In this document: positions 8,227 through 45,111 of the stretch, piece after piece | How the letters are laid out: every line of letters begins with the position of its first letter | How positions within the stretch are numbered: the first letter of the stretch is position 1 | Source of the DNA: Cystobasidiomycetes sp. EMM_F5 | Lineage: Eukaryota | Reading direction: 5' to 3' | Length of the DNA: 64,000 nucleotides | Assembly (NCBI GenBank): GCA_051047955.1 | Contig: JBPGPT010000024.1 | Location: 124,001 to 188,000 of the forward strand | Notes under the pieces: generated by a model | The model's database searches: none | What the model saw: the letters and a program-made list of their open reading frames with translations, nothing else | What the model was told of the DNA's origin: nothing | Made by a program: the position numbers and the translations under genes

Positions 8227-10228
8227 ATGGCGTACCAGCCGGGGACCTGGCTGCCAGACATTGTCACTGCGGTCCAGCAGGCCCCAAAGGACGCGGTCAA
8301 CCCGTTTCTCTACTATGCGGAGCAGCTCTCGCTCAGCGTCTTCTCGGGTATCGCAGAGTGGAGCAAGCCAGTCTTCCTGGTCGTCGGCGCTGTTGCCTTG
8401 ATGTGAGTTGATTGTGGTCTCCACTCCGTTTTACAACACGTTCCTGACGCGTAGAGTGGGGCAACTTTCGACAGCAATGCCGCAGTCACAGCCTTTACGC
8501 TATGGGTCAGGTATCGCAGAGAGGGCGGACTACCAGTGTACAAGATGCTCGCTCATCGTGACGGAGGAAGATACATCGTCCTCAACTCCAACAACGTCTT
8601 TCTCGTCTTTCACCTCCTCACTTCCCTCGCCTTTACCACATGGTGCGTTCTCCACGTCTTTCAGTACGCAAGAAATGGAGATGAGACGGCGTGGATGGAG
8701 ATGACGTGGTCGACGCTCGTGTGGCTCGCTCCTTACATGGGCCTACTCCTCGCATGTCTCGGATGCTTGTATGGCATCCTCGCGACACCATACTCTCACG
8801 CAACCCACATCAACGATGAAGGAGTCATCTCCCATACCTCTGCACCACTCGCGTCTGTACCGAGCTGGATACTCAACACCGTCGTCGTCGCTCTGCCCCT
8901 GCTTCTCGTTGCGACCATCGTGGCACCCGGTCTGCTGCTAATTCTAGCCATCCGAGATACTCAAGACGTGTCGCGTGAGTACATGACGCGCGTGTATAAT
9001 GGTGTCGCTGACTGGTATGCAGTCCAACTGATCGCTACGCTGAAACAATGGGCACCCATCTATGCAGACGGCACTGCTCCCTCACAAGCTGAGCAGATTG
9101 CAGGTTTATCTCAACTTGGCACTCTCAGCCAGCTTGGAGAGTTGACAGCGACTCGATGGCGACCTGTATTTGTTGTCTGGTCAGTCTCAATCTCGGCCAA
9201 ATGATTCGTTCGCAGAAAGATTGATGCATTATCCCGTATACAGGGCAGTATGGGTCGGTCTGGCTTCTGCATTGGCAATGGCTGCGACAGTCACGGTGTA
9301 TCGCGTGACCAAGGCTCGGTACCGCTTGATGGCCATACAGAGCGAGAGTACGCTCGTTGGGACTGCAAGTGGACAGAGCGGCGGTCTTCAGGGTAGTACA
9401 GAAGCGTCCGAAGTATACACTGGCAGTAACGTAACGAATCGATCCTCGCTGGAGAAGCTCACTACTCGACGCGGCTCTCTACATTCGTCATCGCACTTGG
9501 GCAATAACGGCATGGGTGGTAGAGAAGGCGGAAAACAGATGGAAAGGGCAAGATGGGAGCATCTGAATCTTACCATCCAATTCGCGGCAGCCGCGGTACT
9601 GCTCCTCCTGGCCGAAGTCGCCATGCTCTTCAATTGCATATTGGGCTATAGGGTACACATGCAAATCAACCTCTTTGCAGTATCGATTCTCCTTCCCATG
9701 ATTTCGTACGTCGGATGGGCGAGTGTGGGATTGGTCTTGATTATGGTGAGCAGCGCATTCAAGCAGTAAATTCTGTCAGGAACATGTATGCTGACGTGAT
9801 GTCCTTTATAGCTGAGAGCCGTACAAGGTAAGACGGAGCCAACCGCCCCGCCGACTACACCGAAGACGTCCCAGTCTGCCCGCTTCAGTACCGACGCGAC
9901 CTTTATGAGCGAGAAGAAGCAACGGGGCGTTTCTTTCGATGCTCCTTCTCGCCCTGCACGAGCGATCAGCAAAATGAATGCTGGTATTGTCTCGCTTGCG
10001 AATGGAAAGTCGAGGAACGAAGGCGCTCTATACAAACCACCGACCAAGGAGATTTACGTGACGACCGTGACTAGGACGGCTGTTGAAGCGGATGCTGCAG
10101 ACGAAATGCCAAAGCCTGAAATCATCGTCGACGCTGCAACTGCGGAGATTCCTGTCAGCTTTCTGGACTTCCGATATACGCCTGCTATAGAGACGGACAA
10201 CAAAAGTCAATATGGACAGGCTCTGTAA
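8227..10228 (+). CDS. Multi-pass membrane protein of unknown function (about 6-7 TM, cytosolic tail)
   Basis: ATG 8227 MAYQPGTWLP..NPFLYYAEQL..LVVGAVALI, spliced (GTGAGT..GACAG 8474) into the 8536-9204 frame. Further hydrophobic segments in 9170-9769 and a Ser/Thr-rich tail to 10228. Confidence 0.7.
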
Positions 10229-39376: not shown

Positions 39377-41930
39377 CAGCGTCAGACGTCAAACCTCTTG
39401 TAGGTTTGCTACAAGGCGGTGGTTGAATTCGTATTGTGGTGCCCGCAAGCACACTGAGTGATATCGGAATCGCTAATTCTTGTTGAAACGGCTTTGACGA
39501 AGGCCCAGCGAAGGCTAAGGTGCGACAGCACAGAACACGCCGGATTCGGAAACTTTTGGGGGAGCTTGTAATGACCGCTGCTTGTAGAGAAGTAGCTATA
39601 TAGATCGCAGTCAGGATAACATGATTCAAGAATGGTCAGTAGAGTGACAGAGAAAGTTGGCGCTCCTTATGCAGAAAGGTCTTCGACAGGCATTACCGCA
39701 AAAAGGGCGGCAGGGCGGGCTCACTCACCGAAAATGATGAGTGCGTCGACTTCCCGTCTTTGGCAGGTGATCGACTTTTTTGCCACCACTTTGCCCTGAA
39801 GGCTGGTAACCCCGCGTAAAGAGCTCTTGTGTTGCCTCGCTCGCCGATAATGCGGAGAGGTTGACTACCTGCTGCTTGAATGATGCTTGCAGATACGGAC
39901 TTCGAAGTGTTTTGTTCGCGGCTGATGGTCAATTATTCGAGAGAGTCGAACGACTGGCAGAGATCGTCGAGAAACGGAGGAGTACAGGAAAAACCTCGCT
40001 CAGACGTGTATCGACTGGATGTCTTTCTGATGCGTATACTCCGACCGCTCGGACCGTGAGTTTGAAGCTGTTCGCAAGGCGGTGCGTTGGCGAGATCCGC
40101 CAAGGTATTAGGTGCGTCTAGGCTTGCAGGTACTGCTGGAGTCTAGCCTTTCAAACAGAGCACACTTTGTGATTGTCAACGTTGACCGAGCATTAGCATT
40201 GGTGACCTCTAGCCCTCTTAGCTGTTGACTAGCGCTTTGCATAAACAAGGGACGCGCTTAGCCGGAATAGGCAGGGGAGATGAAGGGACGAGCGAAGGCG
40301 CTTATTGCATCGGTGCGCACGGAGGGTCTTTGCTTGCAACCACAGCGCTGTCAGTATATCCTGACACTTCATCTGATCTCGACTTCAGCCATTCTATGAT
40401 CCTCTTGCAGTGCAAGTGTGCCTTGAAGTCGCGTACACCTATCAGGCACTGACACGCGAGCTGCATGATGGACAGAGGCGGAGTTTCCATAATTTTCAGC
40501 GGTGCAATCAGAACTTAACGCCGGGCTGTTGTTCCAGCTGGAGCGAGGATGCGATGTCGATGATGCGCGTTTGCGCTGCGACGTATGACATTTTCATTTT
40601 CAGGCGGAAGAGCAGGACCATCCTTCAGCAGGATTATTGAGACAGCGGAAGTCGGAGGGAGACCCGCATCACTGGCATAGACATCGTCAGGCTTTACTTC
40701 TCTGCCGGCGTTTGGCTGTGCATTTTGAATTGACTGGAAAGTGCGAGTTTGGCAAAGCGGCCACTGAAGCTAATTCGAGGCAGCCGTCACTGAACCTGAA
40801 CTAATCGGTCATCAGCAGCCTTTGCAGCAAGCAGTAGCCAATTATAACAACTTCTTACGCTCCTTCCAGCCGCATTTCAAGTCGAACGTAAATGTGAGCA
40901 GATTTTTCAAATTTGGTTTTCAGCGGGTCGATGGTAGCATTTACGCGGTTCTGACCATCGAACAGCAGCAAAGACGCCTGCTATCAGCTCTTGAAGGCAG
41001 TCGTCAGCCGCAACCCGTCCACGATGACAGACTTCACGAAACAATCCTTCTTTTATAAGTTTACGATCTCTGTCCGGCCGGTTTGATCTGACAGCTTGCA
41101 ACAGCGAGTCCATGCAGTCGGCTGGATACGCATTCCCTTCATGAACATAGACAACCCAGGCGAAATATTCCTTCTCTTTGTGCCAACTATGCGATGCCCA
41201 CAAAATTGGCCATCGAGACAGAATGCTGACTGTCATGACTGAAGAACCTTCTTTTCGCATACACAACACTGAAAGCTGGTCTGGGGATGGACCAGGCCTG
41301 CCACGGAGTGTCGATGAGTACCACCTATGGCAAGCAGGTCGGCCACTTGAACGGCGTGGGTTCTTCTAGGGTTGCACAAGCCCGTCAGAACTCGGCACGG
41401 CAATGCAATTGCATTCGTAATCACGTATTCCAATACAGTACGCAGGCTGGTGCCTCTGCAAGTCTGTTTCATCGTCAATGAGGATATCAGCTGCACATTA
41501 CATACGGAAAAAATGATCCCATGAACCACGAAGGTCAGCGATGTTTCAATACAATGCTAGCAATCCCAACACGTTGTCGAGACACGGCCATTGTAGTGGT
41601 TAGATTATCCGACGCACCTTGTAATGCAAGTCACAATTTCTAGAATAATCAGTCCCAGTCCTTAGATCAGACGTCAGACTTTGACCGGGTTGACCTTCTT
41701 TGCAAACCACGTCGACATATCAAACGCAGCCTACGTCGGGTAAGGTCAGCACGCTCATGGCCCAACCAATTCTGCATTCTGACGCGAATGGCCATTATGC
41801 GGTCTCCAGGCTAAAATACCAAACATACTATTCGCAACCACCTCGACAGTCACATACGTTGCTGCCTTCTGAGCACATCCAATACCAAAACTCCAGTCAC
41901 AGACTCTGCACATAAAACAGCCTAGAGAAC

Positions 41931-43749
41931 ATGTCTGGACTGTCAGCCGGGCTCAAGAACTGGCACTGGCGCAGCAAGGGCACAAAACCATGGGCTGAGC
42001 AGTGGTTCAAGGATCAGCTGACTACGGTGTCGACATCAAAGACGAGAATTACTGGCGTCAAAGAGGTGGAGGGAGATTCGGATCTCGGTATGCGCAAGAG
42101 CAAGGTACGTTACTTCACGCTCCATTCTCGTATGCCGCCAGCAGGAAAACTCATGCTTGGCTCATTCACACCCAGCTCGTTACCATCTACGACCTGAAGG
42201 TTGTCTGCGAATGGGAAGGCAATCTCGCAGACGGTACCGTCGTAAAGGGCACGTTGACAGCCCTAGAAGTCGAGCACGACATGGATGAAGACGAATACAA
42301 ATTCGAAAGTGCATTCGACGACGAGAGTGCACATGGCTCAAATACAGAAGCTCTCGCGCTGAAAGAAGATGCCCGCAAAGGTCTGGCAGACAAGTTGAGA
42401 CCCAAGTTTCAGCAATTCCCCAAAGCAATGATAGAAGTACACGGGAAGGATCTTTTGGCAGAGGCTGAAAACGGAACGCCCTCAGGCAGCGGTACTTCTA
42501 CCCCGGCCGCTGCCCCATCTGCCCCGAGTGCTCCGGCTGCATTGTCGGGAACGGCTACATCGACAACGACAACACAGAAGAAAGCCACTAGCAAGAGAAT
42601 ATCTACAGCAACAGTTCGAGCGGAATCGGAGTTCCAGATTGTGCGCGAAGTGTCAGGCACATTTGTCGAACGGCAAGCTGATGATACTGTTCCTTTTCGT
42701 TTTGCCGTCAATGTCCCCTCAGACTGCAGCGGATCTCTTTGACCTCCTCACAAACTCGCAAAAAGTACCGACTTGGTCTCGCAACCCCGCAATAATCAAG
42801 CCTGAGGTTGGATCACCCGTACAGCTTTTCGGTTCGTCACGGGGAGGCCTCTACATGCGACAATTTAGGGTAACTTGCTGATTTTGATACGATGTTACCA
42901 GGCGGAAATATCGTCGGCAAAGTCACGTCCGTCGACCCGCCGAAACGTTTTGTCCAGACTTGGCGTGCACCGCAGTGGCCAGAAAACCATTTCGGCACAT
43001 TGACTATCGGATTCGACCAAGGTTCCAGCTCGACCAAGCTCTCACTAGAGCTGGAAGGAGTCCCCGTTGGAAAGGAAGACGAGACGGAAAAGGGTCTTGA
43101 CATTTATTATATTCGGTCTTTGAAAGTGAGTTTAGCTCGTTTGACATTTCATCCAGCCCTCTCCGCGATGTTACTGACATACGGCGTGTGCTTGTTTGTC
43201 GCAGCAAATCGGGTCAGTACTAGTTTCTGATGAAGATGACTTTGAAGTCGCCGCCGCTACCGCTTTCAAACGCCTCTCCAATGCTCCTCTCCATCCCTGG
43301 GCCTTGCCAGGCTTCAGACCTACTCCTGCTCCATCTTCCACTCAGCCACGGCGCTTCGATGTCATAAAAGCTACGTCTGCCGTCGCCTCTGTGCTTGTGC
43401 CAGCCGGCCTGGTGGCCATCTTTGCGTGGCTGCTCTATCGAGGCCCAACCTTTCAGAAGTGACTGTAACGGGCGTGAGGTTGTTTTCCCGCTAGGCAATT
43501 GCCGGGAAATATGGCTTTACCGCGAGCTGCACTCTATGAACCGAGTGTAGCTGGGAATGGATTTGCAAAAGGCTGAAGTCCGGCAAACACCCACTTGAAA
43601 GCTTGTCGATCACGCTGTTCAGAGCGAAGCCCCTCCAAGACAAGCGCGGCATGCACTTCAAATCTAGGTCGAAGAGCTATTCTGACATTGTGCGTTCTCC
43701 TTCCCCTTTTCCGCATTCCCACTTTGACAGGTTGGGCACAATGCTATAG
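41931..43749 (+). CDS. AHA1: Activator of Hsp90 ATPase Aha1 (multi-exon; soluble isoform ends QIGLGTML* at 43749, alternative TM isoform ends at 43462)
   Basis: NWHW motif, VEGDSDLGMRKSK|LVTIYD, START-like C-domain LFGGNIVGK..FVQTWRAPQWPENH, GVPVG, YYIRSLK. Confidence 0.93.
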
Positions 43750-43981
43750 CCGTACGAGAATAATTAACCGCACTGCAACGCGCCTCATCGCATTCGGTCA
43801 CGGTCAAGTCGTGTCAAGAGCAAGCTGGGTCTGAATTCGCAAATGCCAATTCTTCGAAAGTAAAGGTATAGACTACTAGAGTGCTATGGAAGACGGTTTA
43901 CGAGGGCTGTTGTTACGACAAAGGAAGACCACAACGAGTCATCAGCCTCTTTGGCATTACCGGTAGTTGATTACGGCCCGC

Positions 43982-45111
43982 TTAAGCCTTCTTCGCGCGT
44001 TTCTGCTTCTTTGCCGGTGGAGCTGCCTCGACGTGCGAATCCTTCTTACCGCCAAAGAGCTTCTTCTGCATTGCCTCGAACTCTTCTTCCGTAGGTTCAG
44101 CTTCTACAGCCTTTGCTCCTCTCTTATTGGCACCCTTCTTGCCCTTGGTTTCGGTTGCACCGTTGCCATACCGACTCTCCAGACTCTCTATCAAGGCTCC
44201 CATCCTGTTCTCCTTCTGGTTGCGAGACTGTATCAAGGCTTTGAGAGCGTCCTCATCAACACCATCTTCGTTGACCTTGCCCTTCTTGCCTCCCTTCTTT
44301 GCGGAGGAAGCCTTGTCGCCCTTCTTTGAACCGTAGAGCTTGTCGTGTATCCCCATCTCCTTTGCCATCTCTTCAGCTTCCTTTGCTTCTGACTCTGCAG
44401 CAGCTTTGCGCTTCTGTCGTCCTTTGGTGTCCTTCACGTCCTTTTTCCACTGGGGTGTAGATTTGAGATCTCCAGCCTTTATAGCTGATTGTACAATCTC
44501 GATGAAGCGTTCCTCGTCTTCTAGCACGTTTGAGCACATTACATTTTCGAAAAGCGCATCTAGGGAACCTTCGCTGTTTGTATATGCTTCGAGGATATGT
44601 GTACGTTCTTCATCGGACCCTGCATAGCGTCCCAAGTGTATTGAGCGACGGGTCGGACTCCTGATGCATTGTCGTAGCGTTACGTACCCTTGTACTCCAT
44701 GCGGAACTCGTCGAGCGTCTGGCCGTTCACTTCACCACTCCAGAGCTCCTTGAAATAGGCATTCCAGTCGGCCTCGCCATCAAACATACTCTCATCCGTG
44801 CGCCCAGTATTGTCATACTTTTTGCGCCGCTTTTCGTCGTTAAGCACAGTATACGCGAAGCCAATTTGATGGAATTTCTGCGTGTTCTCCTCGGATGCGC
44901 CGACCTTGTCAGGATGGTACTGGAGGGCCAGCTTGCGATACGCCTTCTTGATCTGCGAATACATCGTTAGTCGTGATATGGGAGAGCTCGGATATATTTC
45001 GTAGCCCACTTCGTCGACTGTCGCCTTGTCGGTCACTCCAAGCGCCGCGTACAAATCTGGCTCCTCATCGTCTGGGAAAAAGGAGTAGATGGGATCCTTT
45101 TCGTCGTTCAT
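43982..45111 (-). CDS. DnaJ-domain protein, DNAJC9-like (multi-exon)
   Basis: DLYAALGV, IKKAYRKLALQYHPDK, YTVLND..RRKKYD.TG, W..YF, Y.GSDEE, DEERF..I, EAKEAEE.AKE.G, L.ALI..R. Confidence 0.92.

Follow-up and report, generated by a model that had tools for sequence, protein, structure and literature searches.

No stronger accelerator of the Hsp90 ATPase than Aha1 is known, and the protein is regarded as a cytosolic factor in free solution. The gene encoding it in Cystobasidiomycetes sp. EMM_F5 (AHA1) is located on the forward strand of the 64,000-nucleotide (nt) stretch analyzed here, which is referred to as the window (contig JBPGPT010000024.1, positions 124,001 to 188,000), and it can be read to two different C-termini (Table 1). 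Both Aha1_N matches score above the gathering cut-off, and the AHSA1 match in exon 4 scores 49.8 bits against a cut-off of 22.1. The translation contains NWHW near the N-terminus and RKSK in the N-domain, which we take to be the named Aha1 motifs NxNNWHW and RKxK. The lengths of the five introns are 71, 82, 70, 79, and 518 nt, the last one being 6-7 times as long as the others. The micro-exon, the GTCAGT donor, the CTGAC at 43682, the CAG at 43730, and the 518-nt intron between donor and acceptor are all found where the original prediction, made from the DNA letters and their open reading frames (ORFs), had placed them.

Table 1 Positions of the AHA1 gene and its parts in the window (position 1 is the first letter of the window).
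Feature	Position	Strand	Basis or remark
AHA1 gene	41931-43749	+	Exons 1-2 match Pfam Aha1_N, exon 4 matches AHSA1
Exon 1, ATG at 41931, start of Aha1_N domain	41931-42104	+	PF09229, E 8.4e-08, profile 2-49 of 136
Exon 2, remaining Aha1_N and Ser/Thr/Ala/Pro-rich interdomain linker	42176-42640	+	PF09229, E 1.1e-16, profile 51-136 of 136
Exon 3 (TAADLFDLLTNSQKVPTWSRN...QLFG), first part of AHSA1 C-domain	42723-42831	+	Matches P0002; left out of deposited P0001
Exon 4, AHSA1 domain, ends YYIRSLK at 43125	42902-43125	+	PF08327, E 5e-13, profile 51-121 of 125
Intron 4, ordinary, 79 nt, GTGAGT...CTGAC...CAG	43126-43204	+	Sequence
8-nt micro-exon CAAATCGG: Q, I, and first two bases of G; common to both isoforms	43205-43212	+	Sequence, exon model
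Last intron, 518 nt, donor GTCAGT (43213-43218), acceptor ...TTTGACAG	43213-43730	+	Removal would give the soluble form, retention the anchored form
In-frame coding extension within last intron, 82 codons and TGA stop (43460-43462)	43213-43462	+	Translation; kept in P0005, P0007, P0009, P0010, P0011, P0013
HPWALPGF motif in tail linker	43292-43315	+	H, W, L, P, and F invariant in 6 aligned cystobasidiomycete tails
Predicted transmembrane helix ATSAVASVLVPAGLVAIFAWLLY, 23 uncharged residues, then RGPTFQK	43370-43438	+	Kyte-Doolittle 19-residue mean 2.35; AlphaFold2 (AF2)
Non-coding intron remainder, 268 nt; CTGAC 43682-43686, pyrimidine tract, CAG 43728-43730	43463-43730	+	Sequence
Last exon: third base of Gly, L G T M L, TAG stop (43747-43749)	43731-43749	+	Canonical Aha1 C-terminus

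Removal of the last intron gives a product of 332 amino acids (aa) with the end ...SLKQIGLGTML. When the intron is read through, the product has 409 aa and contains AVASVLVPAGLVAIFAWLLY, followed by RGPTFQK and the stop. The original prediction had described a frame open for about 83 codons past the donor, with a hydrophobic segment, the RGPTFQK end, and a stop at 43462, and the translation agrees with it at 82 codons and TGA. Together with the micro-exon, the extension forms an 85-aa tail (43205-43459), of which LSNAPLHPWALPGFR is a tail-specific tryptic peptide in the translation. The other two frames of the last intron stop after 2 and 5 codons. If the micro-exon were skipped and exon 4 joined to 43731, the frame would change (...SLKVGHNAIAVRE and a stop), and correct use of the 8-nt exon is therefore needed for the canonical end. 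The sequence GTCAGT also stands at 9180-9185 of the window. A search for a known RNA hosted by the intron gave zero Rfam matches at E<=1 across 43100-43990.

The short C-terminus is the canonical one. The full-length relatives P0002 (Cystobasidium minutum, 333 aa), P0004, P0006, and P0008 (Mixia) all end in (Q/A)IGLG(T/S)(I/M)L. Residues 9-333 of P0002 align with residues 7-350 of yeast Aha1 (PDB 6xlb), reaching the last residue of both, and the segment ...YYIRSLKQ-IGLGTIL stands opposite ...YYVRSIKLTFGFGAVL of yeast Aha1, which ends in ...KLTFGFGAVL. Exon 4 of the window is 76% identical to P0002, and the spliced window end matches that of P0002 except for M in place of I. The likeness of QIG-LGTML (stop at 43749) to the ends of Aha1 proteins, which had been claimed from the window letters, is thus borne out through P0002. 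P0004 and P0006 are complete proteins (334 and 329 aa) whose contigs are so short (1138 and 1148 nt, respectively) that they must be intron-free and of the transcript type. Both carry the micro-exon and the short end, which shows that relatives do splice in the micro-exon and splice out the long intron. The spliced transcript P0004 and the genomic ORF P0007, which contains the tail, are identical at 67/68 residues of exon 4, so that a single lineage has both ends.

The read-through tail is conserved in close relatives. A phmmer scan of 1.84 billion representatives with the 85-aa tail (E<=0.001) returned 5 matches, four of which (P0009, P0005, P0010, and P0011) are ORFs running on from the QIG of AHA1; the fifth, P0012 (E 1e-4), is an 850-aa repeat protein and apparently unrelated. 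P0007 and P0013 were added by word-indexed profile searches, which score only the 8000 candidates with the largest number of shared words. In all six genomic ORFs, the tail directly follows QIG; P0005, P0007, P0009, P0011, and P0013 begin in exon 4 and reach QIG by way of intron 4, within which P0010 has its start. In the first five ORFs, the length of intron 4 (SLK to QIG) is divisible by three and the intron contains no stop, which lets gene callers read through it, whereas the 79 nt of the window shift the frame. The stop-free intron is probably an ascertainment effect of ORF calling. An alignment of six tails (A1), which was made before P0013 was found and so excludes it, has 21 invariant columns, mostly in QIG (invariant in 6/6), P..H.W.LP.F, and WLLY.GPT, with indels that keep the frame; identity to the window tail is 38-55%. 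The close pair P0005 and P0013 provides an internal control: exon 4 is identical at 65/68 residues and the tail at 63/76 with 0 gaps, whereas the true intron 4 read in frame is identical at only 5/30 positions with 6 gaps. The window tail contains no Met, and none is conserved in the other tails. The tail is therefore translatable only as a continuation of Aha1. No Pfam family was found for the tail at E<=0.01; at E<=1 there are only sub-threshold single-member matches (VEGFR-2_TMD 0.25, DUF5389 0.024, and DUF1376 0.23). An Atlas search with the tail gave a top score of 0.80, which is at chance level.

More distant AHA1 genes were obtained from a metagenome scan seeded with exon-4 peptides only, which yielded 4 loci or, as L002 repeats L003 in truncated form, 3 distinct ones. 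Exon 4 of L001, L003, and L004 is 44-62% identical to that of the window. In all three, a GT donor (GTTCGT, GTCAGT, and, in L004, GTCAGG) interrupts the Gly codon of K-x-I-G, and after the donor come an in-frame Pro- and Lys/Arg-rich linker, a hydrophobic helix, and (L/F/M)YYGP(T/S)G. The stop follows 2-8 residues past the uncharged stretch containing the YYGP(T/S)G motif, and a further 79-170 nt of intron with a pyrimidine tract and CAG lead to (G)LG(T/S)(M/I)L and the second stop. The last introns of the three loci are 399, 278, and 332 nt long. The short end is kept in all 4 DNA loci. The original prediction had pointed to other basidiomycete AHA1 loci for the same micro-exon, long last intron, and transmembrane (TM) segment; the long intron and the TM segment recur in 3/3 distinct loci, and the micro-exon is missing from L001, where K-Q-I-G is continuous with the preceding exon. 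Since KQIG of L001 is not preceded by an intron, the micro-exon is a peculiarity of the cystobasidiomycete lineage, not a part of the mechanism. The HPW.LP.F-type linker motif is absent from L001, L003, and L004, and their tails have zero Pfam matches even at E<=1. Descent of the two tail types from a common ancestor is suggested mostly by their same position and architecture. Early stops or the lack of a hydrophobic segment in orthologous introns, which the original prediction had named as evidence against itself, were looked for, and the frame is open with a hydrophobic segment in the 6 ORFs and 3 loci, which comprise every relative with readable sequence beyond the donor. The claim that one gene offers two alternative C-termini through removal of its last intron is likewise upheld, both ends being conserved side by side.

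The pattern of substitutions was examined between L003 and L004. In a 38-codon block, 39/114 nt differ, with 9, 7, and 23 differences at the first, second, and third codon positions, respectively. Read in the Aha1 frame, these amount to 16 codon changes that are synonymous and 9 that are non-synonymous. Among the remaining five frames, synonymous changes number 0-1 in four and 9 in one, which is broken by 2 stops. The ratio of non-synonymous to synonymous substitution rates (dN/dS) over the whole tail is ~0.30 (Nei-Gojobori). The GC content at third codon positions of the L001 tail is 0.85, compared with 0.89 in the upstream exon, and the values at tail positions 1 and 2 are 0.62 and 0.63. These patterns indicate that the tail is under protein-level purifying selection in several species. 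Because both ends and the coding signature are conserved across relatives, both C-termini are, as judged from sequence comparison, under selection.

The tails have in common the features expected of a membrane anchor. In all 10 (the window, the six ORFs, and the three loci), the best 19-residue Kyte-Doolittle mean is 1.71-2.52, the uncharged stretch is 23-35 residues long, and 2-9 residues follow it. The window tail has 7 residues beyond the predicted helix (RGPTFQK, net +2). The AF2 model based on the six-sequence alignment has a helix at residues 48-79, with 10-residue block means of the predicted local distance difference test (pLDDT) of 85 and 87 over residues 61-80, and it is of low confidence elsewhere (pLDDT <50 for residues 1-9). 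By inspection of the translation, the window protein starts with a non-hydrophobic N-terminus (MSGLSAGLKNWHWRSKG), and what remains corresponds to the soluble Aha1 fold. A single predicted C-terminal TM helix with few residues after it is the architecture of tail-anchored proteins, as had been proposed for the window before the other nine tails were compared. The tail helices are of moderate hydrophobicity with Pro/Gly inside, and net positive charge is present on one or both flanks in 9/10 tails; hydrophobicity and flanking charges of the 10 tails do not separate the endoplasmic reticulum (ER) from the mitochondrial outer membrane.

A gene model of the window AHA1 has already been deposited. 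The 74-aa exon-4 query is 100% identical to an NCBI protein of Cystobasidiomycetes sp. EMM_F5 (P0001, 392 aa), which ends in the read-through tail. In this model, exon 2 runs into intron 2 (VREVSGTFVERQADDTVPFR) and exon 3 is missed (42641-42901), and part of the AHSA1 domain is lost; our exon model of the window agrees with P0002 of C. minutum throughout. The gene models of the EMM_F5 genome come from ab initio prediction by funannotate on DNA alone (PMC12697161).

Taken together, the observations favor AHA1 being a dual-coding gene whose soluble and membrane-anchored C-termini are selected by the choice at the last intron, to which we assign a probability of about 0.72. One AHA1 gene would thus probably make both a free and a membrane-tethered Aha1. 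Use of the GTCAGT donor at 43213 would give the canonical soluble Aha1 of 332 aa; if the donor is unused, translation would run on from the same Gly codon to give an anchored Aha1 of 409 aa. The latter would arise by retention of the last intron or by polyadenylation within 43463-43730, which would serve as the 3' untranslated region of the anchored isoform and may contain an intronic polyadenylation site. Since the retained intron is the last one, the retained form would have no downstream exon junction. A flexible linker of ~50 residues would lead to the single C-terminal TM helix, and the two Hsp90-binding domains would stay cytosolic while being tethered to an organelle membrane (the ER or the mitochondrial outer membrane). 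The donor is under coding constraint, as G/GTNNGT (GTCAGG in L004) is also read as Gly, Ser/Phe/Leu, and Val/Gly, and the last introns of the window and the three loci (278-518 nt) are 3.4-7 times as long as the other four introns of the window gene (70-82 nt). A coding-constrained donor and a long intron plausibly make splicing incomplete, and we infer that this organism produces and translates the unspliced mRNA. The anchored Aha1 would then be inserted into its target membrane and may activate the Hsp90 ATPase locally.

Several points weigh against this dual-coding reading. The length of the extension is unremarkable: when the intron was shuffled by mononucleotides (n=20000), an in-frame ORF at least as long was obtained in 1057 (window), 2350 (L001), 3988 (L003), and 3653 (L004) shuffles, and in the GC-rich loci other frames are open equally long or longer. 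The shuffles are non-significant at every locus, and so ORF length was not used as evidence. Nucleotide identity between L003 and L004 is similar in the tail (142/240 aligned columns) and in the non-coding rest of the intron (59/117). The match between the cystobasidiomycete tails and those of L001, L003, and L004 is weak by hhalign (probability 16%, E 0.0015, 19 columns), and it spans Y.GP(T/S) and the end of the helix. Similarity of the tail is what led to the six protein-only relatives or made them recognizable, which is an ascertainment bias, and no full-length, intron-free Aha1 protein with the tail was present among the 8000 candidates with the largest number of shared words. P0001 was predicted ab initio without RNA data and is mis-spliced upstream; therefore it has no evidential weight, although it bears the tail. 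A search for RNA support of either isoform in this organism, covering runs X1 and X2 at 80% likeness, gave only three short contigs (43067-43274, 41900-41939, and 41922-42072) and no splice joint; the first contig is unspliced across intron 4 and so DNA-like, and the three do not bear on expression. What lifts the tail above chance is its cross-species conservation.

It could be argued that the long last intron is merely open and hydrophobic by accident and that only the soluble Aha1 matters. The ORF length, met by 5% of the window shuffles and by 12-20% in the GC-rich loci, would be compatible with this, and translated non-coding sequence often yields hydrophobic C-termini according to a preprint (bioRxiv 10.1101/2022.07.20.500724). 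However, the tail is kept at the protein level in 9 other sequences, the relatives are not near-identical strains given a tail identity to the window of 38-55%, and synonymous changes outnumber non-synonymous ones only in the Aha1 frame. Moreover, the P0005 and P0013 tails are 63/76 identical where the adjoining true intron is 5/30 identical, and the frame survives indels, and we regard a chance ORF as very improbable. An extremely improbable alternative is that the tail belongs elsewhere, to a small gene nested in the intron or to some other transcript, of either strand, as one of its exons. On the minus strand, a 98-aa ORF does overlap it (43220-43516), but the minus-strand frames have 1, 9 (with 2 stops), and 1 synonymous changes as opposed to 16 in the Aha1 frame. 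The tail always starts exactly at the K-x-I-G donor of AHA1 and in the Aha1 frame, the window tail lacks a Met with none conserved in the others, and the zero Rfam matches also speak against this assignment.

The remaining alternatives accept the tail as a conserved coding sequence, or as the one that is used. The tail might not anchor the protein but act as a hydrophobic C-terminal degron in quality control of the unspliced product, or Aha1 dosage might be tuned through splicing efficiency. Such roles would be in line with a hydrophobic C-terminus that is the best conserved part of the tail and with a variable linker; the idea of surveillance comes from the same preprint (bioRxiv 10.1101/2022.07.20.500724). 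On the other hand, the invariant WLLY.GPT and HPW.LP.F suggest more than a generic degron, the helix lies strictly 2-9 residues from the end in 10/10 tails, and an early stop would be a cheaper control of dosage. This explanation is considered unlikely. Alternatively, the anchored form could be the main or only product in this organism, with the downstream acceptor and the LGTML end as relics, given that the deposited P0001 ends in the tail and that an 8-nt exon beside an atypically long intron might splice poorly. This is distinctly improbable in view of the branch-like CTGAC, the pyrimidine tract, the CAG, and the intact LGTML with its stop, which are all present, as well as the short end kept in all 4 DNA loci and the use of the micro-exon and the short end by the transcripts of the relatives P0004 and P0006; P0001, moreover, is an ab initio model that is wrong in exons 2-3. 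A dual-coding AHA1 with two functional ends remains our preferred reading.

The window protein has the same two domains, Aha1_N and AHSA1, as yeast Aha1 (PDB 6xlb) and human AHSA1 (PDB 7dme), and its spliced end matches yeast Aha1 residue for residue via P0002. It differs in that the gene has a second conserved C-terminus with a TM helix, whereas the Aha1 proteins that have been solved and studied end at a short soluble tail. Full-text literature searches returned no paper whose accessible text deals with a membrane-anchored or tail-anchored Aha1. In Ustilago, peroxisomal isoforms of glycolytic enzymes are produced via alternative splicing or stop-codon read-through. In that case, too, a basidiomycete gene gains a C-terminal targeting signal by a choice at the RNA level; the Ustilago signal is the short tripeptide of peroxisomal targeting signal type 1 (PTS1), whereas the AHA1 extension comprises 82 codons with a predicted membrane anchor.

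The PTC7 gene of Saccharomycetaceae offers another parallel. The PTC7 report states that spliced and unspliced mRNA both encode functional proteins, that the retained intron encodes a predicted TM helix and changes localization, that the in-frame intron is conserved across species, and that PTC7 is the only known such case in S. cerevisiae (PMC3597508). PTC7 and AHA1 are alike in that a fungal intron conserved in frame encodes a predicted TM helix, which in AHA1 would be translated upon retention. The PTC7 intron is near the N-terminus, has a length of 3n without a stop, and runs into the next exon to give an N-terminal anchor, whereas the last intron of AHA1 has its own stop and replaces the C-terminus, which would give a tail anchor; the two genes are also from different families and different fungal phyla. 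FKBP8 (FKBP38) is described as an ER-anchored Hsp90 co-chaperone that links Hsp70-Hsp90 to the folding of membrane-protein cytosolic domains (PMC13470449). It is a precedent for membrane-tethered regulation of Hsp90 by a co-chaperone at an organelle surface. FKBP8 is an unrelated tetratricopeptide repeat (TPR)/peptidyl-prolyl isomerase (PPIase) protein whose anchoring is constitutive and not a matter of an alternative isoform, and it is not an ATPase activator. On this comparison, PTC7 can be regarded as the closest mechanistic precedent and FKBP8 as the closest functional one, and the arrangement proposed for AHA1 is a variant of functional intron retention and of a membrane-tethered Hsp90 co-chaperone, both of which are known kinds.

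Downstream of AHA1, a DNAJC9-like gene is located on the minus strand (43985-44731; Pfam HTH_DNAJC9, E 7.3e-25), tail to tail with AHA1 and separated from its stop by a gap of 235 nt (43750-43984). The same convergent AHA1/DNAJC9 pair is present in L004 (1023-1703 of L004, minus strand; tblastn 39% identity, E 3e-34).

The two ends of AHA1 also have a bearing on annotation, as gene predictors choose one end, so that databases mix Aha1 models of ~330 aa and ~400 aa. Basidiomycota Aha1 clusters of the ESM Atlas are represented by proteins of 406 aa (cluster of 50 members) and 391 aa (64 members), which are 60-80 aa longer than the spliced forms of 320-334 aa. As a lead only, tail-bearing Aha1 models may already be widespread and unremarked in databases. 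It is possible, if rather doubtful, that the anchored isoform is an old and widely conserved basidiomycete invention, an activator of Hsp90 dedicated to the surface of an organelle (the mitochondrial outer membrane or the ER). In that case, its proportion of all Aha1 would depend on the splicing efficiency of the long last intron with its coding-constrained donor, and heat or another stress that impairs splicing would automatically move Aha1 out of the cytosol and onto the membrane. The Hsp90 cycle would then contain a spatial switch operated by splicing, for which no counterpart has been described.

If the dual-coding reading is true, AHA1 would be among the very few fungal cases of an unspliced mRNA that encodes a second functional protein. 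Some fungi would then organize the Hsp90 cycle in space, and the anchored Aha1 could act where the cytosolic domains of membrane proteins fold or where organelle precursors are handed over.

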